DNA from: Klebsormidium nitens
Taxonomy: Eukaryota > Plantae > Klebsormidiophyceae
Length of the DNA: 64,000 nt
Direction of reading: 5' to 3'
Assembly: GCA_000708835.1 (NCBI GenBank)
Contig: DF237083.1
Location: 113,040-177,039 of the forward strand
The notes beneath the pieces are model-generated. The model had not been told where the DNA came from, did not search any database, and saw nothing but the letters and a program-made list of their open reading frames with translations. Both the position numbers and the translations under genes were made by a program. Below are positions 18,175-64,000 of this stretch, piece by piece. Every line of letters begins with the position of its first letter. Position 1 is the stretch's first letter.

Positions 18175-21100
18175 TCAGCTGACGGCTTCTACGTCTGGTA
18201 AAGTATTTCGATTACCTTGGGATACTTGCTCAGAGAAGATGGGAGCACCACCTGTTAACGGATTCTGGCTACCTGCTCTATGAACCTCCGCCCCCATCAC
18301 GACAGCCGAGTCGAGGGACTCAGACAGCCTCGCTAATAAGTTGATCAGCGCGATCACCTCGTTTCGTTGGAGAGCAGGCTGCAAGGAACATGGGGGGCTA
18401 TGTCATCCATCTATTTTCACAGATAGACGTACTCACAAAGCAGCCTGAAAGGGTTAAGTTCAAGCATGCTGACCCAAAAAGGCCTCATCTCAAAAGCAAG
18501 GCGCGACTTCTGCCTCTAACCCGCAAACAGGTGGATAGCAACCCCCAAGAAATGGCTTGTGTAACGGGCGTAATGTATACGACGCGGTCAGATGCTGGCA
18601 ACGTAAGCAATGCATAAGCGACGGGGACTCAGGATACACCTGCAGCAAAGCCAAGAGCTTAAGCTGACTTGAGAGATCAAAGCGATGCCGCTTCTTCTGC
18701 AATGTGACGCACCTGCTTGCCCGTACCCTCGGAGAACAGAATTTTCATGGACGTTGCGAGCCCCAGTATTTGGAGCTTGCCCCACAATCGGCACTTCTCA
18801 CACCCGACGCAGTCCATGATCGCGCTGCATAAAGAAAAGGATTCAGATGGAGGGTTAGGCACAAAAAGCAGGGCTTACGAAGTGGTTCGACAGCACAAGA
18901 ATGTTGGAAGCGAGCCGAGATTTGAACGAAGAACTTCATACTTGAAGGACTGTGTACCAAGATAATCCCTGCACCGCAAATTCAGCTCTCAGTCGTATGT
19001 CAAAATTCTTGATGTTTGGTGCACTGTCCGTTCGGTGCCTGTAAAAGTGACCCCAACAACTCGTGCGGGTTTTCAACTCACGTAAACAAAGTGGCCATCT
19101 ACTAAGCGAAAGGGGGTACCCCGATCAATTTCAGAACACATTCTCCTGATGTACGCCAAAGGCTTCAGTCTGCCAGGTCGCATTTGCAATAGCGCATCGC
19201 TTGCAAACATGTCTCCTTCAAAGAGTTCACCGCAACAAGACAACCAGCAATCGAAAATACAGCAACCGCAATTCAAAGGAAGAGAAACCTAACCGGTACA
19301 ACATCTTGCGGGCGCCCGCACGCTTTGAAGGCACCAGACCGATAACCCCGGAATTTCCAGCAAATCTAATGAGCACCAGATCAAAATAACACACCCGCTC
19401 TGTGTCCCCCATGCCGCACGCATAATGTGACGTCACCGGCACCCGGAGCGCTGGCCCCTCACCTGATGTTCCGGAAGTGTGACGTCAGCTGCGCCCGGAG
19501 CGCAGGCCCCTCGTCGCCCTTCCACAGCTGCGCCTCGTCGAACGGCACCGGACACGCCTGCATCAGCCGCTCGTTGTATACCAGCTGCTGGACCAGCGCT
19601 GCCGTCTCCGCGTCCTCTACAGGGAAGCCCGTACTGTATTCGGCGCTTGCTAAGAAGTCGGCAGCCTGAGGGGGGAAAACAGGCAACTCGTTATACTGGA
19701 GAATGAGTAAATCGGCTTTTGAGTACTGGAACGTAGCTGCTGGACTAGTGCCGCCGTCTCCGCGTCCTCTACAGGGAAGCCCGTGCTGTACTCGGCGCTC
19801 GCCAGAAAGTCGGCGGCCTGTAGGACATCCACAAGAAATGCTTTTCTGCAAAGGCTTGCCACTCAAATCGCAGCAGAAAGAGCTAAAATAATGATCGGAC
19901 ACAGCTGCTGGGCCGGCGCCGCCGTCTCCGCGTCCTCGCTGGGGAAGCCGGTATTGTACTCGGCGCTCGCCAAAAAGTCGGGGGCCTGAGGGGAAAAACA
20001 AGAAGAATCTTCTGTACAGGCAACTCGTTATACTTAGTATACGACTTGAGATACTGAGTAGGCTTATAAATACTGGCACACAGCAACTGGACCAGTGCTG
20101 CCGTCTCCGCCTCCTCGACAGGGAAGCCCGTGCTGTGATCGGCGCTCGCTAAAAGGTCCGCAGCCTGGACAAGGGGAGAACAATATCGTTGACGAAACAG
20201 CGGAAGTGGATTCACCGTTCAATATGAGAACGAAGCTGCTGGACAAGAGCGCTGTCTCCGCGTCCTCTGCGGGGAAGCCGGTATTGTAATCGGCGCCCGC
20301 TAAAGCTGCGGCCAGGGAAGAGGGAGATACAACACGAACGTTTTCAGAAGGAACTCGTCATTTTCAGTGGACTGGATCTGTTTCGATGAGTGCAGCATAG
20401 CGGCTGGACCACCGCCGCTGTCTCCGCGCGTTCTGCAAGAAGCACGTGCTGTACTTGGGCGCTCGCTCGCTGAAAAGTCGGCGGCCTGAGGAAGGGGAGA
20501 CAAGAAGTACTCTTGGAGGAACGTGCTGATTTGCATGAATTACGAAGCTAGCAAATAACAAAGCGGTGAAGTGGAGCCGCCGTCTCCGTGTTCTCCGCAG
20601 GGGAAACCGGTGCTGTACTCGGCGCTCGCTGCAACGTCAGCGGCTTGGGACTAAGGAAACGGACAGGTTAGTGCAAACCTCGATGTTTTAGCAAGAGCTG
20701 TATCACTGAATGAGCACATAGTAGTGGAACACAGCGGCTGAAATCGTGCCGCCGACTCCATGTCCTGTAACAAGAGCCCGTGCTACATTCATGCTCGCTC
20801 AAAAGTCGGCGGCCTGGGAGAGGGCGACAGCAGAAAATCGTCCGATATAGCTCGCCAACTCTGGCAAGTCGATTCAATCACCGAGAACCTCTTCTCCAAA
20901 TGGCCACTCAACTCGTTGATCGGAGCAGACAAAGTCGCTCATATTCTGCCAACCAGCAAGATTGATCACGAGACCTAGGCAAAGCAAAGAAGAAAAGAAG
21001 CAGACCCCGCAGAATCGTTCGCCCGCTCACCTTAGTGGCCGCTCTGAGCACGAAGAGAAAGGTGAAGTACAGGTTCTGAAGTCGCTCCGGATACGCGTGT

Positions 21101-42245: not shown

Positions 42246-42826
42246 NNNNNNNNNNNNNNNNNNNNNNNNNNNNNNNNNNNNNNNNNNNNNNNNNNNNNNN
42301 NNNNNNNNNNNNNNNNNNNNNNNNNNNNNNNNNNNNNNNNNNNNNNNNNNNNNNNNNNNNNNNNNNNNNNNNNNNNNNNNNNNNNNNNNNNNNNNNNNNN
42401 NNNNNNNNNNNNNNNNNNNNNNNNNNNNNNNNNNNNNNNNNNNNNNNNNNNNNNNNNNNNNNNNNNNNNNNNNNNNNNNNNNNNNNNNNNNNNNNNNNNN
42501 NNNNNNNNNNNNNNNNNNNNNNNNNNNNNNNNNNNNNNNNNNNNNNNNNNNNNNNNNNNNNNNNNNNNNNNNNNNNNNNNNNNNNNNNNNNNNNNNNNNN
42601 NNNNNNNNNNNNNNNNNNNNNNNNNNNNNNNNNNNNNNNNNNNNNNNNNNNNNNNNNNNNNNNNNNNNNNNNNNNNNNNNNNNNNNNNNNNNNNNNNNNN
42701 NNNNNNNNNNNNNNNNNNNNNNNNNNNNNNNNNNNNNNNNNNNNNNNNNNNNNNNNNNNNNNNNNNNNNNNNNNNNNNNNNNNNNNNNNNNNNNNNNNNN
42801 NNNNNNNNNNNNNNNNNNNNNNNNNN
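42246..42826. other. Assembly gap (581 N) at the host/virus junction
   Basis: Run of N directly visible. Confidence 1.
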
Positions 42827-42944
42827 GTGTGTGCAACTAGAAAGGACCGCAAAAAAACTTTTGAATATCACTGAGGCCGCACCGAGGCCGCACAGGACTC
42901 GCGCGCGCTCGCGTAGAATCTGGACAAGTGCCTAACCGAGCCCC

Positions 42945-43182
42945 GTGTAGGGTTGTAGGGTGTAGGGTATGTTTTACTTCCTTTATATTCATTTTTACTC
43001 TCTCCCCTTATGAGATAAAGAATAACCCTACATACCCTACATACTCTACATTCAGTATATAGTGAAAAAAGAAAAAGGTTTTAAAATGAGACTGAAGTCA
43101 GTGGCATATGAGATCAAAATTAATAATGTAGGGTTCGAGTAAATCACCGGCAAAACCCTACACGATCCGGCCAAACCCTCGG
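42945..43182. repeat. Cis-element A: TGTAGGG/CCCTACA iteron array around the core TTCAGTATATAGTGAA (43051-43066)
   Basis: About eight TGTAGGG-type motifs in both orientations, AT-rich spacers, and near-palindrome GACTGAAGTCAGT. Confidence 0.85.
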
Positions 43183-43620
43183 AATCCGCACAAGGGTCAC
43201 ACAAAATCCACACAGGGTTTGCTCCTATTTCTAACCTTCTCTGAATCTACGCGGACTCGCGGCTCAAAGGCAGGAAGTTCCATGCAACGTATAAACGGCG
43301 GCTTCTCTGACGGGCATTGGAAAGGATAGAAACGAGGTCTGTCAAAGTATGGCGGGAGGCCTGCCGGACCTGGTTTCCCCTAATCAGCCACCTAATTCTC
43401 TAAATCCTACGCCTGCAGCAGTTGGCCGGCAATTTGATTATTCCAGAAAGCTCGGCGCTCGGCGTGGTAAGTTATACATGGCCACTGAATTGGTCTTCTT
43501 CTGACGATCATTATAGGAGGATTTTATGTTGGTGTTGATGGCAACATGGTGTACCTTCTCAAGGAGTACACCAACCAGCCCTACTTGACTGTGATTGTCG
43601 GAGCTCCTATTCTTCTGCAG

Positions 43621-44418
43621 ACCTGGGAGGTACAAATGTGACAGACACCACTATTGGAGATGAGTTTGTTCGAGCAGTTCATCTTGCACTCAATCGCAGC
43701 CTTCACATGTCAGGAGGTATGTTCCAAGTTTTCATGATTGTTTCATATCTAAAATTGGTTATGAAGTACTCTATGCTGGTAACTTGTAACACTAAGATAA
43801 TCTGTTCTCGAATGGACCTATCATGATCCAGACTAACGTCGCTGACATTCTCAACATAGCCTTTTGTCCTGTGCAGGATTCCGAACTGTTCCAGATCAGG
43901 CAGTGGCAAATGCTGTCAATCAGGCTCTAGCGCACCCTGTTACTGGACTATCAGCACTTGTCAACCAGGCCCTTGCTGATCCTGTTACTGGTCTGGGAGC
44001 TGTTGTCAACCAAGCCTTGGCACATCCTGTTACTGGTCTAGCGGCTGTTGTCAATCAGGCCATGACTCCCATCTCTCGAAACATAGAATGCCAGCAAGCC
44101 AAGAGTCATAATCATCAGTCCATCGGACGCCGCAACGGATCCCTCCTGACTTTGTCTGATCCAGCCGGCAACATGCCCGCACCTGGACAATTCCCAAGAA
44201 GTGTTGAGGAGCTTAGTCATTTCAGCGATGGGGCAGTGGCAGTGAGGGCAGGAAACCACACGCGGATGTCTTACCTTCTGAATTTCTACGATGTCATTGA
44301 TGAGGTGACAGGTGCGGCTTTCCCTTCACCTCCGGGCGCTCTGCCGGCTGGTCCTGCAGGAGACACAGAATTGGAGCGGATGCAACGGGCTTTGGAAAGA
44401 TTTTTAAGTGAGATATAG
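43621..44418 (+). CDS. Spliced gene inside the viral element: 15-aa repeats plus Mug135-like C-terminal domain (tentative); 5' end unresolved
   Basis: Exons 43621-43716 and 43877-44418, with GTATGT donor, GACTAAC branch point and TGCAG acceptor, in frame. (VNQALA[H/D]PVTGL.A.)x3, then QAKSHN...G..P...FPRSVEEL...LLNFYD...RALERFL, resembling the fungal Mug135-like C-terminal pattern. Confidence 0.6.
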
Positions 44419-44638
44419 GTGAGGCTACCTTCAAACACAAATGAGTTTCTGCTTTTTGCAAGAGCTGATTTATCAAGCGAGTCAGCACTAGATCAGTTGT
44501 TGATACTTAAAGATCTGACCCCAAAGGCAAAGGAAAGAGGTTGGAGAAGAAGACCGCCAGGAGAGCTGACAAGAAGAATTAAGGTGACTTTCTGTTAGCA
44601 CTTAAAAGATTGTGCACTTTTATGTTAAAAAGAGCAAA

Positions 44639-45214
44639 ATGGTTTGTTACGAAGATGCCAAGATTTATGTGATCAGGAACACTCTGAATGACCTGCTTTA
44701 CATTGGAAGCACCACCATAGCTTTGTGCAAAAGGATGACCAGACACCGTTGCGACAGCAGAAAACAAAGATGCAATTCTTCAAAGTTCTACAAAGCTTTG
44801 GCAGAGTTGGGTTCTGAGCATTTCTTCATTGAACTTCTGGAAAAGTATCCGTGTGAGAGCATTGAAGAATTGAAGCGGTATGAGGGACAAATGATTAGAA
44901 AGTTCGATACAGTTAAGAACGGTTTCAATTCAGAGATTGCTGGACGTACGTCTCAAGAGTATAAGCAGGAAGAAAAAGAACTGATAAAGGCAAAATATGA
45001 TGAATCTGGACGTGCCAAAAAAGCTGAGTATTACCAGAATCATAAGGCTGAGAACCATGCAAGACAAAGGTCATGGAGACTAGCACATAAAGACGATGAA
45101 GCATTTCGTGAAGCGTGTCCGCTGTGTCTAAAAGAAATGAGGAGAGATTGCATAAAGCGACACATTAAAACTGTCCACAAAGAAGCCTCTACAGCTCCAC
45201 AATTTCTTGGCTGA
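44639..45214 (+). CDS. GIY-YIG endonuclease with C-terminal C2H2-like finger (191 aa)
   Basis: KIYVIRN...LYIGST...RMTRH, IELLEKYPC, E.Q.I...DTVKNGFN, as in NCLDV/PLV GIY-YIG proteins. CPLC...HIKTVH at the end. Confidence 0.88.
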   Translation: MVCYEDAKIYVIRNTLNDLLYIGSTTIALCKRMTRHRCDSRKQRCNSSKFYKALAELGSEHFFIELLEKYPCESIEELKRYEGQMIRKFDTVKNGFNSEIAGRTSQEYKQEEKELIKAKYDESGRAKKAEYYQNHKAENHARQRSWRLAHKDDEAFREACPLCLKEMRRDCIKRHIKTVHKEASTAPQFLG

Positions 45215-45229
45215 GTTCTGCTATCCTTT

Positions 45230-46439
45230 TTATGCATTTATCAATCTGCTCACGCAAGTCTTTGATTTGTTGCAGCTTGGCGGTCTTCTCGGCTTCCTTC
45301 GCGCTGCCTGCTCAGGTGTCGTAGCGATGTTATAAAAGCCTTGGATGTCGGCAGAATTTCCCATCTGGTAGGCAAGCTCCTCACGAGCCTTGATAGAAGG
45401 ATTAGTAGCTAGGAAAGCAGTGATTTTTAAATGCCTAAGACTATTGACCCCTAGGGAAGTTTTCATAGCCCGTTTGAAGGTATCCGTGACACACTTAGAG
45501 AACGTACCATTAGTGTAGGGATCCTTGTTTGTGTTTTCGAACAGATACTTTCGCTTGTGTTCTGCTAGATTTGTTTTAATCACATCGAATAGCACTCCAG
45601 TCAGCTTCGCCTCATACCTGTCGTATGTTTTTGCTGTTTTGTAATTGCCGATCACCATGTCCACGAATTTGTTTCGAGTATTTAGAAACATTTTGTTCGG
45701 CTCCTCGCTGCCGTTGAATTCTGTCTGGCTCTTAAACACCTCCATCTTGCCGTAATCTTTCAATCTCCTCGGTGGAATCAGTGTGTACATAGAGACCAGC
45801 AGATGATCTTTGCTCGCAAAGTCATCCTTTCGAAGTCGTTTCTCGCACTCTAGCACGTCTTTCCATTGCACAGGCTTGCCGTTCAGCATGATAGAAGCGA
45901 CCTTCGGTGCATTTTCTTTTGCTATATCTTGAGCTGCACCGGCAGCTTCCATCATGGCGTCGTAAAACTTTTGCTGGACAGTGTCAGCCACCTGCAGATT
46001 TGTATGTTTTATGAGCGAGACAAACGCTACCAAGTATCCTGTGCGCGAATTCATGTTTGGATACCGGTCGATGATGTACTTTATCACTTTGTCTGGCTGA
46101 TTGACTAGCTTCTGTATGTATGTTTTTCTCGTTGAGACAACCAGCAATAAAATTGGTCTTCCTGACGTAGTCTGTCTGCGTCTCTGAAGCCAGGTTCTGA
46201 TTGTTCTCAATCTGTCGTGTAGTCTCTTCGATTGTCACACTCTTTTCCTTTCCTTTTCCTTTGGCTGCCCGTCTGGCCGGCTTTGGTTTAGGTGGAGGTG
46301 GAGGTGGAGGTGGAGGTGGAGGGGCTGTTGCTTTGCTTCTGGTCGCTCTACCTACCGCCGCCGCAGCACCTGATGACCTTGGTTCGTCATCAATACTGAT
46401 CACTTTACCTGCGTTTTTGCTGGCTCGTGTTCTTGGCAT
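45230..46439 (-). pseudogene. Tyrosine recombinase/integrase, frameshifted by a 4-bp duplication
   Basis: Catalytic pattern PPRRLKDY (R), GNYKTAKTY (K), NSLRH, QMGNS, GFY (Y). ORFs 45984-46439 and 45230-46210 join into a 401-aa protein if one ATAC of AAC-ATAC-ATAC-AG (about 46114-46121) is removed. Confidence 0.88.
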
Positions 46440-46515
46440 ATTTTGCTTCTTTACTAGAAGGATAATATATAAAACTGGGGTCAGATGTCCGCATTATTTT
46501 CTTGTCAGAATTAAA

Positions 46516-46761
46516 ATGGATTACGATATACCAACAGATCCTGTAGAATTGAAAAGACTGCATGCATATTGCCAACGGCTATACTACCACAGCCTCCCAC
46601 CAGAAAAGAAACAAGTTCTGAATGAGAAACAGCGCATCAGATCTAGAGTGAAGTATCAAACCGACCCAGTACACGCTGAGAAAGTAAAAGAATATCAAAA
46701 GGCACGCTATCACCGTAAGAAAGCCGAGGCGAGTGCTTCGAACACGAATGAAGAAATTTAA
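46516..46761 (+). CDS. Small basic protein, paralogue 1 (Y..DP motif)
   Basis: MDYDIPTDPVELKRLHAY...VKYQTDPVHAEKVKEYQKARY. AT-rich upstream region; similar to the two downstream ORFs. Confidence 0.7.
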   Translation: MDYDIPTDPVELKRLHAYCQRLYYHSLPPEKKQVLNEKQRIRSRVKYQTDPVHAEKVKEYQKARYHRKKAEASASNTNEEI

Positions 46762-46816
46762 TTTTGGTAGAAAACAAAACTACTTAAAGGAATACTTCCT
46801 CTTCATATTAGTAAGA

Positions 46817-47168
46817 ATGGACGCGAAGCTGGATATCGAGGCACTGACTGAGAGCATCAAGGCATTTGTTTTGGCACAAGTCGCTGAACAGGCTGCTAAA
46901 AAGTCACCCCAACCTGTTTGGAGACACACTGCAAAACTTATACAAGGAGGATGCAGCGTATGCAGACAAAATTCGTACAGCTGCTCGCGAGCGTTTTCAC
47001 ACGCTGAGCAAAGAGGAACGTGACCAGATCAATCAACGAAGCAACGAACGCTACAAAAATGACCCCGACTACCGTGAAAAGAAAAAGCAGAGGGCGAAAG
47101 AGCGGTCGGCTAGACTGAGGGATGAGCGTCGGGCAGCGAGGGCGGCCGCCGCAGCTCTCAGAACTTAA
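46817..47168 (+). pseudogene. Small basic protein, paralogue 2, with a +1 frameshift at about 46940
   Basis: MDAKLDIEAL...HTAKL in one frame and YKEDAAY...YKNDPDYREKKKQRAKER in the +1 frame. Removing one base from CTT-A-TAC gives TAKLYKED, which aligns with SAKRYHED of paralogue 3. Confidence 0.7.
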
Positions 47169-47235
47169 TTTTTTTGAATTTGCACAAAAAAAGCACTTAA
47201 GAACAATTCAATATATCTGCTTAGTATAAGCAAAC

Positions 47236-47562
47236 ATGGAGGCAATCGCCGACCAACTGCACAGTCTAAAGATCGACCCGGCAAAGTGCGAGGTGAAAAT
47301 TGTTGTCAACAGGGTATACAGCACCAGTGCCAAGCGTTATCACGAAGACCCAAAGTACCGTGAGTCCGTGAAATCAGCGTCACGTGCCCGTACACAGAAG
47401 CTGACGCCCGAACAGAAGGAAGCGAACAAAAAGAGGGTTTTGGACAAGTATCACAGTGATCCTATCTACCGGGCAAAAGCCTTACAGCGTGCACAGGAGC
47501 GACGTGCTCGGAAGAAGGAAGAAAATGCCCGGTTGAAAGCTGAAAAGAAGGGCGAACCCTAA
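47236..47562 (+). CDS. Small basic protein, paralogue 3 (108 aa)
   Basis: YHEDPKYRESVK...KYHSDPIYRAKALQRAQERR. Conserved promoter motif upstream. Confidence 0.75.
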   Translation: MEAIADQLHSLKIDPAKCEVKIVVNRVYSTSAKRYHEDPKYRESVKSASRARTQKLTPEQKEANKKRVLDKYHSDPIYRAKALQRAQERRARKKEENARLKAEKKGEP

Positions 47563-47649
47563 ATATCAAATATTATTATTTTTGTCTTTTAATTTGCACA
47601 AATGAAAAACTACTTAAGGATAATATCTTACAGAATAGTAAAAAGCAAA

Positions 47650-50142
47650 ATGGCACCCCGACAGAACCTTACAGCCTTCCTCTCAAAGCGTAAAGTGGAG
47701 AAATGTTCAGCATTTACTCACACTGGATTAGGTAAGGACTTCCTTGGTTCGTATTACGTCAATGAAGAGGATGTTGACACGTTGCATGACCTGTATATCA
47801 AGTCCTTAGAGGCCGGTGATCGCCTGCACCTGACAGAAAAGCACCGGGAGGGTAAATCTCCGATCTACATCGACTTTGACTTCAAACAGCTGTCTGGAGA
47901 CCGGTTGTATACCCCCGAGCACGTTCGAGAAGTATACCTGGCGATCGCCCAGGGGGCATCACACTACGTCCAGTTCACCCCCGAGGACTTGACCTGTTAC
48001 GTGCTCGAGAAACCGTCCCCCCGACCGGACAAGAACCACCCGTATAAGGATGGTTTCCACCTCATCTTTCCTGACATCGTGACGTCACCAACCGTCCAGC
48101 ACCTGATCCGCAAGAACATCCTAGATTCTAACAGCCTTGCCGAAATTTTCGGAGACTGTGGATTCAAGAACAATTACTCGGACATGTACGACGAAGCGGT
48201 TATCGAGAAAAACAACCTGATGATGTACGGAAGTCAGAAGGTTGACGAGCCTGCAGCCTGGACAGTAAGCTACTTGCTGACTGGGCAGGACGGTGACGAA
48301 GAAGAGTGTGAACTTGAGCCTGCTGAACTGGTCTTGGAACTGTGTGTCCGAAACAAGTTCACGTGCAACCCTACGATCGCGACAGCTACAGCTGAGATTG
48401 AAGCATATGCCGCCGAGCGAGCCAAGAAGGCAGAGAAGCCAGCGCAAGCCAGCTTGTCCAGGTTTGCGGGCAACAATGCCATCACCTTCGACAGGCTTAA
48501 GGCTCTCATTGCTGGTCTCGCGGAGGAGCGGGCGGCCGGTAGAGACAGCTGGTCAAAATGCATGTGGGCAATCATGAATGTCTCCAAGGACAATGGCTTC
48601 AGCGAATTCCAGAAGATGAAGCTGGGTCATCAATTCAGTGAGCTCAGCCACAGCCACTATGACGAGGATGGCGTGGATAAGTTCCTAGCTGACGGGGTCA
48701 AGGAGCACACAAACCCTATTAACCTGGCTACATTGATCCTGTATTTAAAGCAAGACAACCCGGACGTATATGACACTCTGTTCGGCGGCGTGAAGTCTTA
48801 TGATGAGACTAAAATGGAATTTGAGCGTAATCATTTCAAGGTAATGCAGCCACTGTGCTTTGTTGAGGTCGAAGCCGACGATCAAAGCCTATATTACCGT
48901 GGAAAAAGGGAGTTTTTGGAGGCTTATGAGAATCTATATTGCACGGTGAAGAAGGTGGATAAAAACGGAATAGAATATACCGAAAAAGAGGCATTTGTTA
49001 AGTTGTGGTTTGCCGACACTCAGATCCGGACGTACAAAAAGTTGGTCTTCTGTCCGCCGCCTACCCCCGTGCCAGCAGATTGCTTCAACACTTACAACGG
49101 CATGCAAGCGGAAAAGGCGGAGGCTGACGTCAGCTGCGGAAGCATCGAGCCCTTCTTGCGACACGCGGCGGTGCTGTGTAACAATGTTCCCCAGCATACG
49201 GAATACTTCCTCAAATACTTGGCTCATATTGTTCAGTTCCCTGGAAAGCTGTCAAACGTAGCTATAGTTCTCAAGTCTATTGTGGAGGGTGTCGGGAAAA
49301 ATACCTTTCTGGATTTCTTCATGAAGCTAGTGCTGGGGGAGGAGCTATCCTATGAGTCAGCGAATCCTGTCAGAGATCTGTTTTCCCGATTCTCACAGCG
49401 GAGGAAGGAGAGACTAATGATTGTCATTAATGAGACCAGTGGGAAGGACACGCACGCATTCAGTGAGCAAATCAAGGACATGATCACGTCGACTACCTAC
49501 AATCATGAGGAGAAAGGCATCCGACCAATCAAAATGAACAATTACGCCCGGTTGATCTTCACAACCAACAATGACGTCCCCGTAAAAATCGGACAGCACG
49601 ATCGACGGTTCGTGGTCTTTGAGGCTAGCAACGAGCTGGTCGGAAATGCGGAATATTTCAGGAATTTTGCGCAATATGCCGCTGACCCGAACAATGCCTT
49701 GGCGGTTTACGAATATTTAAAATCGCTCGACCTGTCGACTATTCATTTAGAAAACGATCGCCCGAAGACCGAGGAGTACCTTGAGATTCAGAAGAACACC
49801 ATCAAGCCCGAATACCGATTCTTGGGTAGCATGATCGAGATTTATCGGAAAAACCACAACAGCGACGTGGTAGCATTTAAGGGTCTGGATATATTTATAG
49901 AGTTTTCCAAGTGGATGACCCAGGCTATACCGTTGCAAATCACCTCCACACAGTTTGGACGGACACTCAACACGCTGATGAAGCTAACCGACTCGGTTCA
50001 AAAGCGGCGGTTAGGAACCGGGGTGGTTTATGAGATCAATCTACTCAATCTACAGCATTGGATGGTGGAGAAGAAGTATATCGACGACGGAACTGGTCTG
50101 GACGACGTTGAGAGGTCTGTACCGGTATTCAGACCCGAATAA
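47650..50142 (+). CDS. AEP primase - PriCT-2 - SF3 (D5-like) helicase fusion, 830 aa
   Basis: HLTEK...PIYIDFD, KDGFHLIFPDI, MMYGSQK (NCLDV-type AEP); WSKCMWAI (PriCT-2); EGVGKNT Walker A, VINE Walker B, IFTTNN, DRRF (SF3). Confidence 0.93.
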   Translation: MAPRQNLTAFLSKRKVEKCSAFTHTGLGKDFLGSYYVNEEDVDTLHDLYIKSLEAGDRLHLTEKHREGKSPIYIDFDFKQLSGDRLYTPEHVREVYLAIAQGASHYVQFTPEDLTCYVLEKPSPRPDKNHPYKDGFHLIFPDIVTSPTVQHLIRKNILDSNSLAEIFGDCGFKNNYSDMYDEAVIEKNNLMMYGSQKVDEPAAWTVSYLLTGQDGDEEECELEPAELVLELCVRNKFTCNPTIATATAEIEAYAAERAKKAEKPAQASLSRFAGNNAITFDRLKALIAGLAEERAAGRDSWSKCMWAIMNVSKDNGFSEFQKMKLGHQFSELSHSHYDEDGVDKFLADGVKEHTNPINLATLILYLKQDNPDVYDTLFGGVKSYDETKMEFERNHFKVMQPLCFVEVEADDQSLYYRGKREFLEAYENLYCTVKKVDKNGIEYTEKEAFVKLWFADTQIRTYKKLVFCPPPTPVPADCFNTYNGMQAEKAEADVSCGSIEPFLRHAAVLCNNVPQHTEYFLKYLAHIVQFPGKLSNVAIVLKSIVEGVGKNTFLDFFMKLVLGEELSYESANPVRDLFSRFSQRRKERLMIVINETSGKDTHAFSEQIKDMITSTTYNHEEKGIRPIKMNNYARLIFTTNNDVPVKIGQHDRRFVVFEASNELVGNAEYFRNFAQYAADPNNALAVYEYLKSLDLSTIHLENDRPKTEEYLEIQKNTIKPEYRFLGSMIEIYRKNHNSDVVAFKGLDIFIEFSKWMTQAIPLQITSTQFGRTLNTLMKLTDSVQKRRLGTGVVYEINLLNLQHWMVEKKYIDDGTGLDDVERSVPVFRPE

Positions 50143-50210
50143 TCAACTCATTTTTTTATTAACGCTAACTGTCGTTTAGCGGGACTCAAGAGAAACGCCC
50201 AACTAAACGA

Positions 50211-50590
50211 GTGTAGGGTTTGGGAGATTAGTGTAGGGTTTGAGAGGAGAATCGCGAAACCCTACACTATTGTCCTTTTTCCGTTTTTACACTGGTTTCA
50301 GTCTCTCCTTTCCCTTTCCTTTTATATTTCAGTATATAGTGAATGTAGGGTATGTAGGGTATGTAGGGTTATTATGGAACTCAACACGGGGGAAAATAAG
50401 AAAGTCATATAGGGGAAGGCGGGGTCAGCAAGTCTACATACCCTACACCCCGTATAGACTGAATAAATAATGATATTTGGTAATGAAGACTGAATTCAGT
50501 CTTTTAATATTTCTAAACGTTTAAAATGTAGGGTTTCCAGACTTTGCTTGCAAACCCTACACAAATTTCCGTAACCCTACAAACCCTACA
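50211..50590. repeat. Cis-element B: TGTAGGG iteron array, core TTCAGTATATAGTGAA (50328-50343) and 18-bp palindrome AAGACTGAATTCAGTCTT (50486-50503); putative origin/recombination site
   Basis: More than ten TGTAGGG/CCCTACA motifs in inverted pairs around AT-rich tracts, immediately downstream of the primase-helicase stop. Confidence 0.85.
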
Positions 50591-50650
50591 TCGACTTATA
50601 ATCTCTACGTTCAAACAAATGAAAAATTCTCTCTGATAGAGTTAAGAAAT

Positions 50651-51016
50651 ATGTGGTATTATCGTGTGCTTATTGAAGCAATAGACCCTTTAGATGGCGA
50701 CTTGACTTACATTAGCGACTACGTAAAGGCAGGCGTTTTGAATAAATTCGAAGCATTTGTAAGAAGGTATTACCCTGAACACAAATGGCTTGAGAAAAAT
50801 AAGGTGGAAATCACGGAGGAAAACCCTTTCCAGCCGCACGATGAGAGATGTACGGTTGTGACACGCTACGGACTTAGTAAACTACCCGCGACGGACGCCC
50901 GATTACCAACAAGCTGCCCCATCGCGACACCCCTGTCAAACCCTCTGTTGAACTTAGCGGCCGCGTGTTCACCCGCCGCACCAAAGTTCGCGCCGATAGC
51001 CGACGACAGCCTATGA
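50651..51016 (+). CDS. Hypothetical viral protein (121 aa); 3' part overlaps an antisense gene
   Basis: ATG after an AT-rich leader; N-terminal 75 aa look like a normal globular protein. Confidence 0.45.
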   Translation: MWYYRVLIEAIDPLDGDLTYISDYVKAGVLNKFEAFVRRYYPEHKWLEKNKVEITEENPFQPHDERCTVVTRYGLSKLPATDARLPTSCPIATPLSNPLLNLAAACSPAAPKFAPIADDSL

Positions 51017-53037: not shown

Positions 53038-53937
53038 ATGAAGACGGAACGACTTCCTATCTCTAAGGTGGACATCAAGAACAACAAGCTGCCATATGGA
53101 GACCGCAAAGTGCCTGAGTATATGCCTGCTCTTCACCCGCTAGTGGCTTTGGTTGGCTCGCGTGGACAAGGTAAGACCACCAGAATCTGCGAGTGGCTTC
53201 TTATGTATGACGCAGCCAAATCGTATGATAAGGTCTTTGTGATCTCGCCTACGTTTACGAGAGACCCCAAGACGGCTTGCCTGACGGAAGAGCCTCGAAA
53301 TTTCACAGTCGAAGTTATTCCAGGATACACGGAGGATGGCTTCAAAGACATCATGGCATATATGGTGCACGAGGTCGATGAATACAAGAAGTACTTAAAG
53401 GAATTGGAGGCTTGGAAACGTTTCCTTAAGTGCAAAAACATAGATTCGCTTAGCAACGACGATATCGCGCTGCTTTATGGTCTTGACTTTGAGGCACCTA
53501 AGACGATCTATAAGTGGGGCTTTCCATCGTTCTGTGTGGTCGTAGATGATTGTGTGGCAGACAAGAAGATGTTCAGCCCGACCATGCGTGGGGCTTTTGT
53601 GAACTTTATCCTTCTTCATCGCCATCACTCTTGTAGTGTGATTATGGCGAGTCAAGTGCTAACCAATGGTATACCTAGAGGTGTTCGAGGGAACGTCAGC
53701 TGTTGGATCCTGTTCGATACGAAATCAGACAAACTCAAGGAATCGATCGCGGAAGAGCTGGCATCTAAGGCAACCCCCCAAGAGGTCTTGGAAGCCTGGA
53801 CGCAAGCGTGTCAGAAGCCTCACGACTTTCTGTTTGTGGATTACGATTCAAAGGATCGAAACCGCATGTTTAGGCAATGTTGGGATAATCAGATCTTGTT
53901 GGAAACAATCAAGCCTACTCCGGAAACACCGACTTAA
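53038..53937 (+). CDS. A32-like (FtsK/HerA) genome-packaging ATPase, 299 aa
   Basis: Walker A GSRGQGKT, Walker B CVVVDD, LHRHH arginine-finger region, ASQ, HDFLFVD. Confidence 0.93.
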   Translation: MKTERLPISKVDIKNNKLPYGDRKVPEYMPALHPLVALVGSRGQGKTTRICEWLLMYDAAKSYDKVFVISPTFTRDPKTACLTEEPRNFTVEVIPGYTEDGFKDIMAYMVHEVDEYKKYLKELEAWKRFLKCKNIDSLSNDDIALLYGLDFEAPKTIYKWGFPSFCVVVDDCVADKKMFSPTMRGAFVNFILLHRHHSCSVIMASQVLTNGIPRGVRGNVSCWILFDTKSDKLKESIAEELASKATPQEVLEAWTQACQKPHDFLFVDYDSKDRNRMFRQCWDNQILLETIKPTPETPT

Positions 53938-57014: not shown

Positions 57015-60000
57015 TTAAAGGATTCCCGTGTAAATGAAACAGCCATAGAGTTGCGGTGAACCTGTAATGCTATTCATATTAATTACCAGTTGATTGAATG
57101 AGTTAATCGAATAATTATTTACTGACATTCCATTATTGAAGAAGTCCCTTTGACTAAAAGTTGCGACCTGACCTACTTGGCGACTGATATAGATGGAAAC
57201 CATGCAAGACCATGGGTATGTGATATTTCTAGTCTTCACGAAGAAATCAAGTCTTCCCATTGACGTGACTAAAGTACTACCCCATATTGGTGATAAATCT
57301 ATCGTACCAGCAAGACCACTGAATGCCGTATATCCACTTGAAACAATGACGGGTCCTTGCCCTGCATTAGACCAAGCCGGGACGTTGAGGGCATCCGTTC
57401 CAATAGAATATGTACTGGCGGCAAAACTTGCGGTAAGCGTACCGTTGACCGCTGTTCGAACTGACCCTCCAGACGATGCATTCACTGTTGTCAGTGTTCC
57501 TGACGAACTTTGTGTAAGAGCATAACCAGTGGTATTGTGGTTATTAAAATGCGAGAAAGTAGCATCACCCGGGAAAACGTTTGATGATATTTGCGCAGTC
57601 TGAATAATCGCTCCGTTTCTAAACTTTGAACTACCATCATTGTATAGCACGAGATTTGACTGGGTCTGAGCAGAGTTCAGGAATACAATCTGTCCTAATT
57701 GTGTGCCTATCACGCCGCTACCGTTTAATTGCAAATAACCTTGAACATTAAGTTGATTTGTGACGTTGACCATTCCTCCGACGTTCAACTTGTTTCCAAG
57801 ATTTGAACAATTACCGTTGGTATCAACGGAAAGCAGATTAGACCATGTTGTATAGTTCGAATTGAAGGGTTTACATACGTTGAAAGCAGCCGCAGAATAA
57901 CTACCACTGATGACGGCTCTCACTTGACCACCAGCCCACTGACCAAATCCGTACAGATCACTTCCACCATAATTTGCAACAGTCATCCATCCAGGGTCAG
58001 AAGCAGGAAACTGTAAACCGCCAGTAGCACATGTTGCAACTCCGTTCACGCAATTACTGGCGTTGACGGCGGCGTTCGATACAGTAGTGAAGGCGGTACT
58101 TGTGTTGCTCAAGACGGCTGGGACAGAGATCAACGAGGAGTACGGCAACGAACCTGACAGAGTCGTCGCTTGAAGCGTAGTACAATTGATAGTACCGCCG
58201 ACGTCGAGCGGATACCCAGGAGAAGCATTCGATATACCCACAAAACCGTTTCCTGCAACTATGGTAAGTGGCCGGAGGCTATTCCAAGAGCCATTGGATG
58301 TTCCACTTAGAAGCATGTAATATTGACTACCGTCGTACCTCTATATGAAACTGTTGTTAGTTGAACCATACCAGTAGCGTGACTGTCCGTAAGAATCGTA
58401 TCCAAAGAGTGAGTTGGATGCCGCTACTGAATAACCGACATTAACATTACATGTCTGAACCATTCCACGAACATAGAGACTCCCCGTATCAGCCGTAAGA
58501 CTCATGAGGCAGCTCTCGTTATTGTTCTCCCAAATATACCCCTGCTGAGTACCGCTACCCGTCCGCATTCGGATATGGTGAGCAGTTCGTCCGTCAAGAC
58601 TGATGCATGCCGTATTACTTGCTGCACTTTTACCAGCACCAGACTGGCACATATACATCGACCAGTTCCCATCATTTGCATCCCAAAATCTAAGACCTTT
58701 TTGATAACCCGTATCGCTTTGAGTGTTGATGCTAGTTATACCATACGAAGTAAGAGTGCCGCTACTAGACATATTTCTAGCAGCATTAAGAACTCCCGCA
58801 ATGTTAACATTTCCAGAATTTGATAAAGTTGTACTTGCTATTGTTCCAGAATTAGAGAGAGTCGCCGATGAGATGAAACCACCCACCTGCAGGTTGCCCG
58901 CATTAGTCAGATTACCGACAAAAGACGTGTCGCCCGTCCTGCAGTTAAACCAATGCCTATCATTACAGTCAGTCAAGCACTTAAACTCAAACCTGACCAA
59001 GATGCTAACCCTCCTTGATTACTACCACCGTTAGACGTACCAGGGAGACTGCCGTCGACGCCTTCACAATAAACATGTACCCCAAGATTCGGGTCTGATG
59101 GAACGCCTACCACCAAATTTGATGTAAATATTCTCATGTTGTTTGAAGGAGTTTGAAGCGAATAGACTGACAGCGACGTATTAGACACACCTACGTAAGA
59201 CGGGGCTCCCGTTATATTGCTCCAGCCAAGACTCGAACTGTTGAAGAGGAGAGCTGGTACGCTAGTGAGTAGACTATATGCCACGTTGTTGGAAAGCAGA
59301 GCAGGAAGCCCCGATAGGTTCGAGTAGCCGAGCAAACTTGAGTTCGACAACAAGCTCGGGACGCTAGTGAGTAGACTATATGCCACGTTGTTGGAAAGCA
59401 GAGCAGGAAGCCCCGATAAATTCGAGTAGCCGAGCAAACTTGTGTTTGACAACAAGCTCGGTACGCTCGTGAGATAACCCCACCCTAGCGAACCCGCCAG
59501 AAGATTCGCAACGAGAGTCCCACCAACCTGAAAATTGCCAGAGTTAGAATGAGTCGCCGAAGTCAGCGTAGTCGCAACGTTTGCCGTTCCATTTACATCG
59601 AGAGTCGCCGAGGGTGCAGTGGTACAGACCCCGAACCGTCCGTTGCCCATACAGTTAAATGATGCTGAACCAAGAGGTTGTCCCCACATTCCTATTGCTC
59701 CGTAATTACTAGGACTTGCGTTCAAATAATATGAGAATGCATGCCAAGATGTATTGTAATTCGAAACGGTGTTGACGCCAACATTTAGCAAATGATAAGA
59801 ATTGGAATTCGGCGAAGGAGTGTAGAGTGATGACGAGATTCCGCTGGTTGTGGTCATATTACTGGTTAAAGCGAGACCTCCTGAAATTGTGGTAGCACCA
59901 GCGGCGAGCGTCCCAGTGATGGTCGCGTTATTAGAAACTAGAAGGTTAGAGCCGACACTTAGGTTGGAGCGAACATTTACATGGTTATTCGACGTCTGAA

Positions 60001-61621
60001 GACCATTGAGCTGGAACAAACCGTTGCTCGTGGTGGTTAAACTATACGTGTCCAGGATCATATTACTATTCTGATTCGAATCCCTGTAGATCATCCGTGA
60101 GTCTTGTATGTGAGTCGAAAACAGACCGATATCCATGTACGAATTTGCCGCCCCCAACTTCATGTAGCCTGACGCAGCATTGATCAGACACGAAACACCT
60201 GCATCCGCAGACTGGAGGACTGAGCTGATAGCACCAGCCCCGTTGAAGGCTTGAAACGCACCAAAGGCGAGTCCCGCTGCTCCAAGCACCGTTCCACCGA
60301 CAGCGATGGCGTTTGTAGTGGAATCGAATGATGGGGCTCCGCTTATCTGAGACCATGGAAACGACCCGCTCTTGGTCTGTAGCGACGGACTCGTATTCGA
60401 ACAGTAAATCACAGCATTGCACGAATATGTTGCCGTGTTCGATGCGAAGGTAGAGCGAATACTATTCGAATTTATGAGAGCATAAGAGGTATTCGATATA
60501 GTCTGAAAATTGTTCGAGCAGAATACACCAAGATTACTTGAATAAGCGCTAGTGTTGGAAGCGAAGAGTGATTGATTACTAAGGTAAATATTGTTTGAAT
60601 ACACAGTCGTGGACAAGTTTGAATAAACATAATTAGACATACCTGATACGGTCGTATTCTGAAGATTACTCCATGAAGCGAATGAATTAGAAATGGTTGC
60701 AATATTTGACGTATTTGACCAGGTTTGGTTCGATTGAGTGTTAAGATACAAATAGGTCGGGTTGCTATAGGCGAAATAGGTGGTAGCATAATTTGAAAAA
60801 CTTGTAAAATTACACGAAGTCGCAACGTTCGATAAGTTATTAGACGTCCAAGTACTCTGGTTGCATAGGGTCGCTAACTTTGTGTAAGAATCATTGCTAA
60901 AACCTAAAGTAAAATTAGACAATGAATTTACCTGATTGGATGACCAAGATGCTACGTTGCTTACGGTGTTTATGGTGTTGGAGAGACCCACAACCTGATT
61001 CGAAATCCCCTGAACCTGGTTCGAGAGCGAAGACAGTTGTCCTGAAGTCAGATTACCCGTCAAGGTTAGATTCGATGCTGCAACCGACTGGGCGGTTACT
61101 GCTCCAGCAATAGACACATCTTGGAGAAATTCAGCGGCGTTTGAGACGGTGAAGGCTGGGTCGACCTGAACGGATGAAATGATGTTGCTTCCGTTGCTGC
61201 TCGTAGCTGAGAACTGGAAAGATCCCCCACTCGGGTTAACCTCCGCTGTCAGAGGGTATGAAAACTGTAGATTGTCGTTAACGTACAGTTTGAGCGTGTT
61301 CAGGGTTTGCCTCAGGGCGATCAGGTTGTTGCTGGCGGGTACAAGTGGGTAGGTATTGCTCGACAGGAGAGTGTTCGAACCTGAGTAGAGAGAGATATTG
61401 GAAGCAAACTGGTTCAGCTTGATGGAATACTGTACGTTAGAACTATCACCCCAGCTTATCAAATTGGTGTTGACCTGCCCAGTCTGGTTCAGGTAGTACC
61501 TCGCCAAAAACGAATTTGCTGGTGCTATTGAGACGCTGGCGACTCCAGTCTGACTTGCACCGCTGGTTAAATAGATTTGGTTATTACTCAGCTGGGCGGC
61601 GTTCGAGAGCGTCAATGACAT
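57015..61621 (-). pseudogene. Long Ser/Asn/Thr-rich fibre/spike-like gene split into three ORFs by a 1-bp deletion (about 58992) and an in-frame TAG (58341-58343)
   Basis: ORF 58973-61621 ends ASWSGL while the -1 frame continues FEFKCLTD..RHWFNCRTG. ORF 58341-59000 ends NSFI*RYDGSQYYMLLSG, in frame with ORF 57015-58316. Repaired length is 4608 nt = 1536 codons. Confidence 0.75.
59240..59475 (-). repeat. 102-bp (34-aa) tandem repeat in the fibre-like gene
   Basis: TSVPSLLSN(T/S)SLLGYSNLSGLPALLSNNVAYSLL x2 plus a partial third copy; acgctagtgagtagactatatgccacg at 59259 and 59361. Confidence 0.9.
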
Positions 61622-61660
61622 TTACATTATTGACACAGAAAAAAATGATCTTTTTAAGAT

Positions 61661-62473
61661 ATGCATCTCCTCAAGTGGGTCGGAGGAAAGACGAAGATAA
61701 TTGACCAGGTCATCGAGTCTTTTCCAAAGAGTATGAACAATTACCACGAACCTTTCCTGGGGGGAGGAAGTGTTTTGTTAGCACTTCTCAAGAGTGATAT
61801 CGAAGTCAAGGGAACGATCGTAGCGAGCGACGCTAATCCTCACCTGATCAACTTCTTCAAAGCGGTCAGAGACGACCCAGGACACCTTTCTTACGAGCTT
61901 TGTCAGCTAAAAGATGACCCGAAGCACGAAACCCCTGAAGCTTACTACTATCTGCTAAGAGATCGGTTCAACATTGCCCCCACTCCCGCTCTATTTCTTT
62001 TCCTTAATCGGACTTGCTTTAGAGGACTATATCGCGAGAGTAAGCGAGGGTTCAATTCCCCGTACGGATGGTACAAAAAACCTTTGTTTCCGACTCTTGA
62101 AGACATTTTAGCTGTCTCGCGACTGATCCAGGGGGTCGAGTTCATATGTCAGGGCTTCGAAGACAGCCTGGTGCGTGTACAAAAAGGAGACTTTGTATAT
62201 CTTGACCCACCTTACTATCCGCTGAGCGAGACGGCTTCATTCGTGGACTATGTGGCGGGGGGTTTTGTCAATCACGAATTACTTTTCTCGACCTTGAAGG
62301 CTCTCCCTTACTCCTTCGTGTTGAGTAATTCTGACGCTGATGTGGTCTTGAAGTCTTTCCCAGAGGATCAATACGAGGTTTTGAAGATCCCTTGCAGTCG
62401 TTCACTGAAACCAGGTGCTAAGGGTTTGCGGGTCAATGAGGTGCTGATCAGTACGAGAGCGGACTTCGTGTGA
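61661..62473 (+). CDS. dam: Dam-like (D12 class) N6-adenine DNA methyltransferase, 270 aa
   Basis: LKWVGGKT, YHEPFLGGGSV (motif I), NRTCFRGLYR, FVYLDPPY (motif IV), LSNSD. Confidence 0.9.
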   Translation: MHLLKWVGGKTKIIDQVIESFPKSMNNYHEPFLGGGSVLLALLKSDIEVKGTIVASDANPHLINFFKAVRDDPGHLSYELCQLKDDPKHETPEAYYYLLRDRFNIAPTPALFLFLNRTCFRGLYRESKRGFNSPYGWYKKPLFPTLEDILAVSRLIQGVEFICQGFEDSLVRVQKGDFVYLDPPYYPLSETASFVDYVAGGFVNHELLFSTLKALPYSFVLSNSDADVVLKSFPEDQYEVLKIPCSRSLKPGAKGLRVNEVLISTRADFV

Positions 62474-64000
62474 AAGATCCTTTCCAACCCGCCGAAGAAG
62501 GAATTGACTGCATATTCACAGTCCCAGAGACTAGGTCGTTGAAATTCATGGAATCATTGGGATAAAACGTCCCCGACGAGTCTAGAATAGGACGGGCGTT
62601 GTCCCCGTACAATCCAGGAGTCATACTGGAATTGGCTTGGAAACCAGTTCCGATCTGCATCACGGAACTTCGCACGACCCCGCCACAGACCACGTCTTTT
62701 CCTGTGGACAGATTGCTGTTAACGAAGACGTTCGAATTGGTTGCGATCAGTGCGGGGGTGTTCAGGTTGCTTTTTATGCTCAGCGTGTTCACGTTAGTCA
62801 TGTTGAGATTCGAGTCGATAGTCAGGTTGCTCGTGATCTGATTGCTTCCGTTCGAGTAGCTCATTGTTAGGCTGAGACCACCATAATCTTGAATCAAGGT
62901 CGAGTAATTTGACCCGTTCAGGTTCTTAAGAATGATGTTGCTCGAATTTAATTGAAGACCAGTTATGCTGTTGTTCAAAAAGGGATTTAAGTTGCTTGTA
63001 CACTGAAGAAAGACCAGGTTGCTTTCGCTCACCGTAAAGTTGCTCGCACTGATGCGAACGTAGTTCGACTGCCCCGTACTCAGGTTCAGATTGCAAGATG
63101 ATTGAACATTTAAGTCTTGAGCTGCGTTCGATCCGTTGCTCAATGTCGTCCAGTTAGATAAAGAAAGTGCTGATATGAATTTTGTGGAAACATTACTATT
63201 CGCGGTGATGCTATTCGTGATAATCTGGCTGTTGATGTACAAGGGAGAGTTGCACGAGGTCGAGATTCCAGACCCCGCTAGGTTTATCATGCCAAGCTGG
63301 ACATTAGATGAGGAAAGCTGATTCGAGCCCATAGAGAGAGTGCTCAGGTAAGCAGCAGACCGTCCAACATCTAGAACCAGATTGGAGGTCGCTGTCGTTG
63401 CGTAGACATTGGTGTTGTTTTTTGAAAAGTTTTGATGGGGGACACTAAAGATCTTCGAGTTGGTCTCATCAAAATAGAGGTTTGACTGAATACCTATGTC
63501 ATACCCGTTGGTCGAGAAGGGTCTGTTGGTTAGCTTGCTCCAATCAACATATATATTCGAAGACCCGTTATCATTCGAGCCCAAGGCGTCTGAAATCGGA
63601 TCCTTGATGTTGTCGGAAAGCTTCGGTGTGTTTCCCAGCAAAGACTGCAGCTGTTGGTACATGTCATAACCTAATTGTCCCAGATCGTATGCGCCCTGCG
63701 CAAGGGCTAGAATATCGAGCCCGTTGCTCTCGGAAATGTTCTTCAAAGATGCCCAGTCGATCTTGCTGTTTGAGTCGATCACGGCGTTATTTGATCTGTC
63801 TAAAAGTTGCGAGAGGATGTAAACATTTGAACCAAAGATTGTCGTTGCATCTAGGTAGTTCGTAAGCACGGAAGAAGCCGCCAGGTTGCTGGTGCAGGTA
63901 AGGGTGTTCGTTTCTACGTGGACTGCTTCAATCACACCCGATGCTAAAGAATCAAGAATAAGATTACTGTGTGACGTTTGGGCTATGGTTAAGTCTAACC
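62448..64000 (-). CDS. Second Ser/Asn-rich fibre/spike-like protein; 5' end beyond the window
   Basis: Frame stays open to the window edge (LDLTIAQTSHSNLILDSLASGVIEA...); beta-rich SN repeats similar in composition to the first fibre gene. Confidence 0.7.
   Translation of the reverse strand, partial: LDLTIAQTSHSNLILDSLASGVIEAVHVETNTLTCTSNLAASSVLTNYLDATTIFGSNVYILSQLLDRSNNAVIDSNSKIDWASLKNISESNGLDILALAQGAYDLGQLGYDMYQQLQSLLGNTPKLSDNIKDPISDALGSNDNGSSNIYVDWSKLTNRPFSTNGYDIGIQSNLYFDETNSKIFSVPHQNFSKNNTNVYATTATSNLVLDVGRSAAYLSTLSMGSNQLSSSNVQLGMINLAGSGISTSCNSPLYINSQIITNSITANSNVSTKFISALSLSNWTTLSNGSNAAQDLNVQSSCNLNLSTGQSNYVRISASNFTVSESNLVFLQCTSNLNPFLNNSITGLQLNSSNIILKNLNGSNYSTLIQDYGGLSLTMSYSNGSNQITSNLTIDSNLNMTNVNTLSIKSNLNTPALIATNSNVFVNSNLSTGKDVVCGGVVRSSVMQIGTGFQANSSMTPGLYGDNARPILDSSGTFYPNDSMNFNDLVSGTVNMQSIPSSAGWKGSFTRSPLSY

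Follow-up and report, generated by a model that had tools for sequence, protein, structure and literature searches.

We found that an endogenous Polinton-like virus (PLV) in a Klebsormidium-like alga carries two inverted copies of a cluster of TGTAGGG repeats, which bracket its replication and recombination genes. The element lies in a 64,000-nt stretch of Klebsormidium nitens contig DF237083.1, hereafter the window, and its two copies, sites A and B, share a 16-bp core. By analogy with known iteron origins we are confident that the two sites represent inverted origin copies, B being the origin and A an inverted partial copy of it. The core is a dyad beside the cluster and, judged against known recombinase systems, is likely the site at which a tyrosine recombinase would invert rather than excise DNA. 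Recombinase-driven inversion of the 7.3-kb segment between inverted origins, similar to that of the yeast 2-micron plasmid, is the mechanism that we tentatively favour.

The window contains the core, TTCAGTATATAGTGAA, at exactly two places, 43051 (A) and 50328 (B), which are 7277 bp apart and both on the forward strand; the reverse complement of the core is absent. The observation at the heart of the original prediction, that the same core appears twice in one orientation within inverted arms, is thus borne out. With X denoting the left and Y the right arm of core A, site B reads reverse-Y, core, reverse-X. Site A aligns to the reverse complement of B with 70 % identity over 209 nt (E 6.5e-21), and a loose pattern of the site matches three times in the window against 0.18 expected, a number that none of 100 shuffles reached.

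Identity is unevenly distributed along the arms. The core-proximal part of X agrees at 29/30 bases and its middle at only 32/60 columns, and 21 of the 30 bases in the conserved stretch are iteron letters belonging to three heptamers. The 33/34 arm identity initially reported is correct if the count starts at the 8-bp spacer (TTCA and then 30 nt, 29/30 of the latter identical) and becomes 30/34 if it starts at the 16-mer. Likewise, the match between the right arm of A and the left arm of B stands motif by motif and comes to only 75/118 identical columns in the alignment of the two Y arms. The core is identical to its own reverse complement at 14/16 positions, with a symmetric TATATA centre and dyad arms that reach 4-5 bp beyond it. 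Its status as a direct repeat depends on the two G/C bases flanking TATATA. The spacer had been described as flipped relative to its arms; it does read the same on the forward strand at both sites, with a polarity that consists of two bases only. TTCAGT-type hexamers recur within the Y arms, outside the cores. An 11-bp near-inverted motif also flanks site A outside X and Y (42896-42920 and 43244-43254).

The two-site description proved incomplete: A and B are real, but a third, degenerate site C (50448-50463) had been overlooked. Region B (50212-50590) therefore reads Y, X, Y, a 380-bp pseudo-palindrome with 70 % identity over 150 nt, and forms a complete three-part TGTAGGG cluster in which two outer pairs enclose inward-facing iterons around an AT-richer centre. 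Site A is an inverted two-thirds copy of this region at the left end of the element, and the X-core-Y junction is present three times in the window. Region B holds 11 iterons. Its interior is 55 % A+T against an element mean of 54 %, and the interior at A reaches 74 %; the AT bias is clear at A and slight at B. Unit X of site A is likely an origin centre. TGTAGGG is one base off the plant telomere repeat TTTAGGG; the heptamer of the X units (42946-43050, 50344-50447) is also found in phages, which speaks against a telomere link.

The reading of the arm repeats as iterons is supported by comparison with staphylococcal pathogenicity islands (SaPI), in which rep is immediately followed by an origin of 6-12 iterons; these are arranged in opposed sets on either side of an AT-rich centre, and the C-terminal domain of the helicase binds them (PMC9371898). 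Region B shows this layout, with opposed iterons directly downstream of the primase-helicase gene, 70 bp past its stop. The likeness to SaPI origins and those of phage-inducible chromosomal islands (Rep, PriRep) extends to the shortness of the iterons and their arrangement in opposed sets. As far as the available text on those origins goes, the window differs in that its heptamer is common to eukaryotic viruses and phages, in its extra outer clusters, in the second inverted copy 7.3 kb away and in the dyad beside the iterons. By the same analogy the primase-helicase of the element is likely the initiator that binds the iterons.

In unrelated elements too, among them virophages, PLV-like contigs and phages, D5-type primase-helicase genes have this heptamer and layout next to them. 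A scan with the Y-arm pattern returned 51 loci (7 viral, 44 metagenome) in 37 non-redundant groups, 12 of which have a D5-like gene within 600 bp. Such a gene lies near 11/19 groups with three or more iterons compared to 1/18 with a bare pair, and a permuted control pattern gave 5 loci in 2 groups, none with a D5-like gene. Pfam confirms the helicase in every D5-associated group except L051. The X-doublet pattern is present in at least 67 viral contigs, of which 43 of those listed have a D5-like gene in the fetched DNA; the cluster lies no more than 500 bp from that gene in 42 of these 43 listed contigs (24 groups at 60 % identity). In L003, L008, L010, L015, L022, L039, L042, L049 and L051 the cluster has the same three-part layout as B; the contigs sharing it are phage-like and PLV-like, with GC contents of 27-67 %.

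Two points count against this association: the profile used for counting D5 genes was seeded by the window protein and 8 of the hit loci and the control is small, and in prokaryote genomes, where the pattern is less specific, 1/26 matches stands beside a D5 gene. Fifteen of those prokaryote loci (L140-L146, L149-L151, L154, L155, L159-L161) come from one Prevotellamassilia timonensis genome, where they form a TGTAGGG-rich dispersed repeat family with no D5 gene nearby. In L002:8132-11096 (also in L005, L007, L024 and L030) two open reading frames (ORFs) that both match DNA polymerase B flank an inverted heptamer pair, which places the pair within a split PolB gene. The core sequence itself was not found with an iteron flank in viral contigs, nor at one mismatch in any of the 161 loci or in the 2 records searched. 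As protein queries the window primase and capsid found no locus in viral contigs, and the recombinase alignment found none in metagenome or viral contigs.

Extra clusters are concentrated in recombinase-bearing genomes: several clusters are present in 7/13 contigs with D5 and recombinase compared to 1/30 with D5 alone, a comparison that kinship confounds and in which the profile detects only this recombinase family. Four multi-cluster contigs that we checked are virophages by their capsid Pfam matches; several virophages have the cluster two or three times, often inverted. The inverted copies of G005 (93 % over 184 bp) have D5, methylases and recombinase between them and the capsid genes outside, as in the window, while those of G007 (90 % over 172 bp) surround D5 and the capsid genes but not the recombinase. 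G006, which is circular and 100 % complete, has inverted copies (85 % over 251 bp) that enclose the recombinase, with D5 just outside. Since these three genomes differ in the genes enclosed, the enclosed gene set is not fixed; repeat-bracketed replication modules do recur in other elements. Other copies had been suggested as a check on the geometry of the cores; in G006 two dyads abut the iterons in both inverted clusters, and their asymmetric centres follow the orientation of the arms.

A minimal replication module is represented by L040, in which 120 identical inverted bases surround a primase and a small ORF. This 3-kb contig (L040:1-2994) consists only of a 749-aa primase-helicase and a 110-aa ORF between inverted iteron clusters. 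Its arm has no match in viral contigs. In L019:1-3244 the L040 DNA continues through unit X into other genes.

We compared copies of the locus in assembled contigs, in which rare forms and palindromes tend to drop out; runs X1-X4, from one sample that may be the source of the window, were compared over A and B, and X4-X7 over B, X5 having no contig there. Multi-copy contigs begin at 42946, a 173-nt contig ends at 42968, and the DNA left of the boundary is single-copy in the same sample. This suggests that the multi-copy DNA starts at about 42939-42946 and that site A therefore sits at the left end of the element. Core A is unchanged in the other copies of that sample. In one other copy an A-type X is followed by a B-like Y piece, and this copy diverges from the one in the window immediately after TATATA, a weak observation from one contig and 31 letters. 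B-type regions have many copies in a second sample, and are found also in another organism, located between the primase end and the next ORF. We weighed whether a joint from 43061 to 50240 in X4 could be an inversion product and decided against it: the joint runs into DNA like that downstream of A, not into the primase end, and was unseen in the second comparison. In run X7 the changes among those listed for window positions 50120-50680 are all C>T (13) or G>A (7), from which we infer deamination of methylated, silenced copies. Three G>C places were tallied in the copy comparison over region B.

We hypothesize the following sequence of events. With SaPI origins as the model, the C-terminal domain of the D5-type helicase very probably binds the iterons and melts the centre. 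In a circular episome the recombinase would then cross over within the TATATA hexamer of two oppositely oriented sites. Both inversion products would retain an X-core-Y junction, so that the origin would survive, and inversion beside the origin could drive double rolling-circle amplification in the 2-micron style. The two-base flip of the core would amount to half-site variation. As the recombinase of this copy is broken, this copy would need recombinase in trans. In tyrosine-recombinase chemistry a symmetric hexamer permits either alignment of the sites. On paper, the circle released by A x B excision has two Y arms but lacks X, and the remainder has two X units but lacks the primase; inversion leaves X beside Y at both junctions. 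We favour inversion because it keeps the iteron layout that excision splits.

Recombinase fold and a dyad with a 6-8-bp centre are shared with Cre/loxP and lambda attL/attR, but the half-sites of the window consist of 4-5 bp of dyad and its polarity resides in two bases. By comparison, the half-site dyad of loxP is 13 bp and FRT has an asymmetric 8-bp spacer. The 2-micron plasmid, like the present element, is a eukaryotic replicon with a tyrosine recombinase and two inverted repeats; its one pair of 599-bp repeats undergoes Flp/FRT inversion, which yields isomers and can start double rolling-circle replication (PMC3147054).

Several observations weigh against recombinase-driven inversion. Unlike the 2-micron plasmid with its 599-bp pair (PMC3147054), the window has diverged copies, each of them origin-like, and shows no isomer. 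The Y arms are only 64 % alike. The identical reading of both cores on the forward strand lacks an explanation under inversion; template switching was considered as a source of the inverted spacer and rejected, such events being reported, in the text available, only for arms longer than 9 bp against the 4-5 bp here (PMC8604942). No inversion joint of this locus was found in the contigs of the runs, and no inversion isomers were found among 38 related contigs compared, assemblies keeping one form. One contig pair showing both orientations was rejected as isomers, being too distant (68-73 % identity in short pieces). Extra copies in direct orientation are found in L092, G008 and G009; in G001 and G002 almost all of the 4 iteron matches per genome fall into a single cluster. 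Few iteron flanks have a dyad: 12/142 flanks reach 7 pairs compared to about 3.5 in shuffles, and 6 of these 12 flanks come from the window and G006. Finally, extra copies are present or absent between close relatives, which fits passive duplication.

Passive duplication or movement of an origin cassette is a possible explanation and nearly as likely as recombinase-driven inversion. The dyad would then belong to the origin or be bound by an accessory protein, and the recombinase would act only at the outer ends, for integration. A 140-bp X cassette present in virophage G008 (L095:7998-8121) is cleanly absent in its relative G010 (L122, ~25866), and the two genomes differ in the side of the D5 gene on which the full cluster is found; origin cassettes thus seem to be gained and lost. 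The occurrence of copies in both orientations, most of them without a dyad, the lack of isomers among the 38 contigs and the TTCAGT-type hexamers in the Y arms, which resemble a repeated protein site, are all consistent with passive duplication. It accounts less well for the confounded excess of extra copies in recombinase-bearing genomes and for the dyads that abut the iterons in both copies, in the window and again in G006.

In the original prediction A and B were an attL/attR-like pair: a Y-core-Y circle carrying recombinase and primase would have integrated into an X-core-X palindrome, making the module excisable and the virus bipartite. Under this model the identical forward-strand reading of the 8-bp spacer at both sites needs no mutation, and the model is in line with the unchanged core A of other copies in the sample, with the recombinase and D5 gene between direct X units in L092, with the bare primase module between repeats in L040 and with the mobility proposed for repeat-bracketed replication modules (PMC11296320; 10.64898/2026.10.13.758929). 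We nevertheless consider it improbable, and the bipartite virus unlikely. The cores are direct repeats, but 14/16 of their bases are symmetric and the polarity is that of two bases; B is an intact three-part unit that A x B excision would split, the circle losing unit X and the remainder keeping X without a primase. X-core-Y, found three times, is the native origin junction, and the asymmetric dyad centres of G006 are not flipped. Neither the circle joint nor the empty-site joint expected of such a pair was found in the contigs of X1-X4 (both sites) or of X4, X6 and X7 (B), weak evidence since rare forms and palindromes could escape.

The hairpin-telomere alternative raised alongside it finds little support. 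Here the core would be the target of a telomere-resolvase-type enzyme, a staggered cut in the hexamer would produce hairpin ends, and the two orientations would be flip and flop forms. Telomere resolvases cut a symmetric 6-bp centre, to which the self-complementary TATATA corresponds, and TelA is among the fold matches of recombinase homolog P0022 (E 7.5e-04). This protelomerase ranks only 49th, below Cre, XerA and lambda Int, and the protein has ordinary tyrosine-recombinase motifs; the two recombinase gene pieces of the window have no match to the telomere-resolvase Pfam family. The model thus does not place the recombinase in the protelomerase class. With arms that are palindromic only 4-5 bp beyond the centre and with G006 mapping as a circle, we regard telomere resolution as very improbable.

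Parts of this picture have precedents. In a proposal by Barth and colleagues, the inverted repeats of PLVs act both as origin and as substrate of the recombinase; in Gezel-14T a repeat-bracketed module contains GIY-YIG, recombinase and primase-helicase (PMC11296320). This end module, found also in entomopoxvirus PLVs, resembles the window in having these three genes beside an end repeat with a second copy downstream; the Gezel-14T repeat is direct and longer than 300 bp, whereas the window copies are inverted and about 70 % alike. The available text of PMC11296320 names no iteron sequence, origin layout or core site. In Polisuviricotina, repeats other than terminal inverted repeats separate replication from capsid genes and mobility has been proposed; unlike the present case, these are described in genomes with two replicases (10.64898/2026.10.13.758929). 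The word iteron is absent from the main text of that paper, whose Figure 6 may show such repeats. The idea of a modular or mobile replication module is therefore already in print. No internal inverted origin is named in the available text of PMC9356565, PMC8547959, PMC5636890, PMC10301787, PMC7805220, 10.1101/2022.07.28.501842 or 10.1101/2025.10.09.676808. Literature searches for TGTAGGG or CCCTACA returned only wheat, Yersinia and maize papers. We found no account of this heptamer origin, of the three-part layout or of its sharing among phages, virophages and PLVs, and no description of inverted internal origin copies in virophages or PLVs or of this Klebsormidium element, in searches to which figures, supplements and most subscription papers lay outside.

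The element occupies a gene-dense 21-kb stretch to the right of a 581-N gap and continues past the window end (64000). As predicted, a recombinase-primase module lies between the sites, with a GIY-YIG nuclease, a tyrosine recombinase and an AEP-D5 primase-helicase, and the double-jelly-roll capsid gene lies beyond them. Within these 21 kb a primase fused to a superfamily 3 (SF3) helicase and a tyrosine recombinase stand in place of pPolB and the rve integrase, and a major capsid protein of the kind that defines a PLV is present, as judged from a low-confidence model. The coordinates are given in the table below.

Features of the element and its sites in the window
Feature	Position	Strand	Remarks
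Assembly gap, 581 N	42246..42826	.	separates host-like DNA from left flank of element
Probable left boundary of multi-copy element	42939..42945	.	from contig breakpoints and depths
Unit X of site A	42946..43050	.	3 TGTAGGG facing 3 CCCTACA-type iterons across 74 % A+T interior
Core A	43051..43066	+	16-bp dyad, symmetric TATATA, abuts iterons; candidate recombinase site
Arm Y of site A	43067..43179	+	A-tract, second small dyad, inverted iteron pair
GIY-YIG endonuclease, 191 aa	44639..45214	+	Pfam PF01541, E 1e-07
Tyrosine recombinase gene	45192..46439	-	broken: full-length homologs lack its two frame changes; has R, K, RH and Y motifs
Three small basic ORFs, partly frameshifted	46516..47562	+	one weak PHROG regulator match, E 7.4e-06
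AEP primase fused to D5-like SF3 helicase, 846 aa	47602..50142	+	PF23162, E 3.7e-47; PF19263, E 3.9e-17
Arm Y of site B, inverted	50212..50327	-	left outer cluster; begins 70 bp past primase stop
Core B	50328..50343	+	identical to core A on +; 2 bases off a true inverted copy
Unit X of site B	50344..50447	-	central part of putative origin
Site C, degenerate third core	50448..50463	+	only Y-side half-site intact
Third Y-type arm	50464..50590	+	right outer cluster of putative origin
P-loop ATPase ORF	53038..53937	+	Walker A; weak PHROG terminase match, E 2.3e-06
Double-jelly-roll major capsid protein, 403 aa	55095..56306	-	model matches PBCV-1 major capsid protein, E 2.1e-11; pLDDT 57
Dam-like adenine methyltransferase	61661..62473	+	Pfam PF02086, E 4.3e-46

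The named homologs of the capsid protein are Klebsormidium nitens proteins. The window proteins have no match to the Sputnik-type capsid Pfam family, and the candidate minor capsid ORFs have no family match in Pfam or PHROG. The P-loop ORF, presumed to be the packaging ATPase and presumably A32-like, has no PDB sequence match below E 0.08. The three small basic ORFs possibly encode DNA-binding proteins. Inside the module, 43500-44420 is a decayed coding region; at 43904-44061 it contains three to four tandem copies of a 45-bp repeat. Long Ser/Asn/Thr-rich fibre-like ORFs fill 57015-64000, one with a 102-bp tandem duplication at 59256-59459, and have no Pfam family match above the cut-off. On the host side there is an array of at least 7 diverged repeat units of about 150-180 bp at 19562-20824, and a three-copy repeat inside a gene at 6041-6650 with a hairpin of 37-bp arms at 6473-6554; the exons of this gene resemble the oligosaccharyltransferase STT3, a label that we take from its WWDYG motif.

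In the literature covered, and in the parts of it available, PLV and virophage origins and the substrates of their tyrosine recombinases have so far been hypotheses without a named sequence. This locus yields a concrete candidate origin, defined by a heptamer, a three-part layout and a place beside the primase-helicase gene, which is common to PLV-like elements, virophages and phages, together with a concrete 16-bp candidate recombinase site. The value of the locus lies in this testable origin and candidate site, not in the bipartite-virus claim. Repeated origins inside genomes offer a mechanism for the mosaicism of replication modules reported in these viruses. It is conceivable, although we regard it as rather doubtful, that TGTAGGG marks one origin read by D5-type primase-helicases from phages to virophages to PLVs; recombinase-bearing eukaryotic elements would hold two inverted copies with cores, and OLV11-type recombinases would invert the genome, thereby amplifying it and exchanging modules at the origins. 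Release of the replication module through these cores is also conceivable in this algal lineage. If this broad picture is true, such elements would be a viral counterpart of the 2-micron plasmid.

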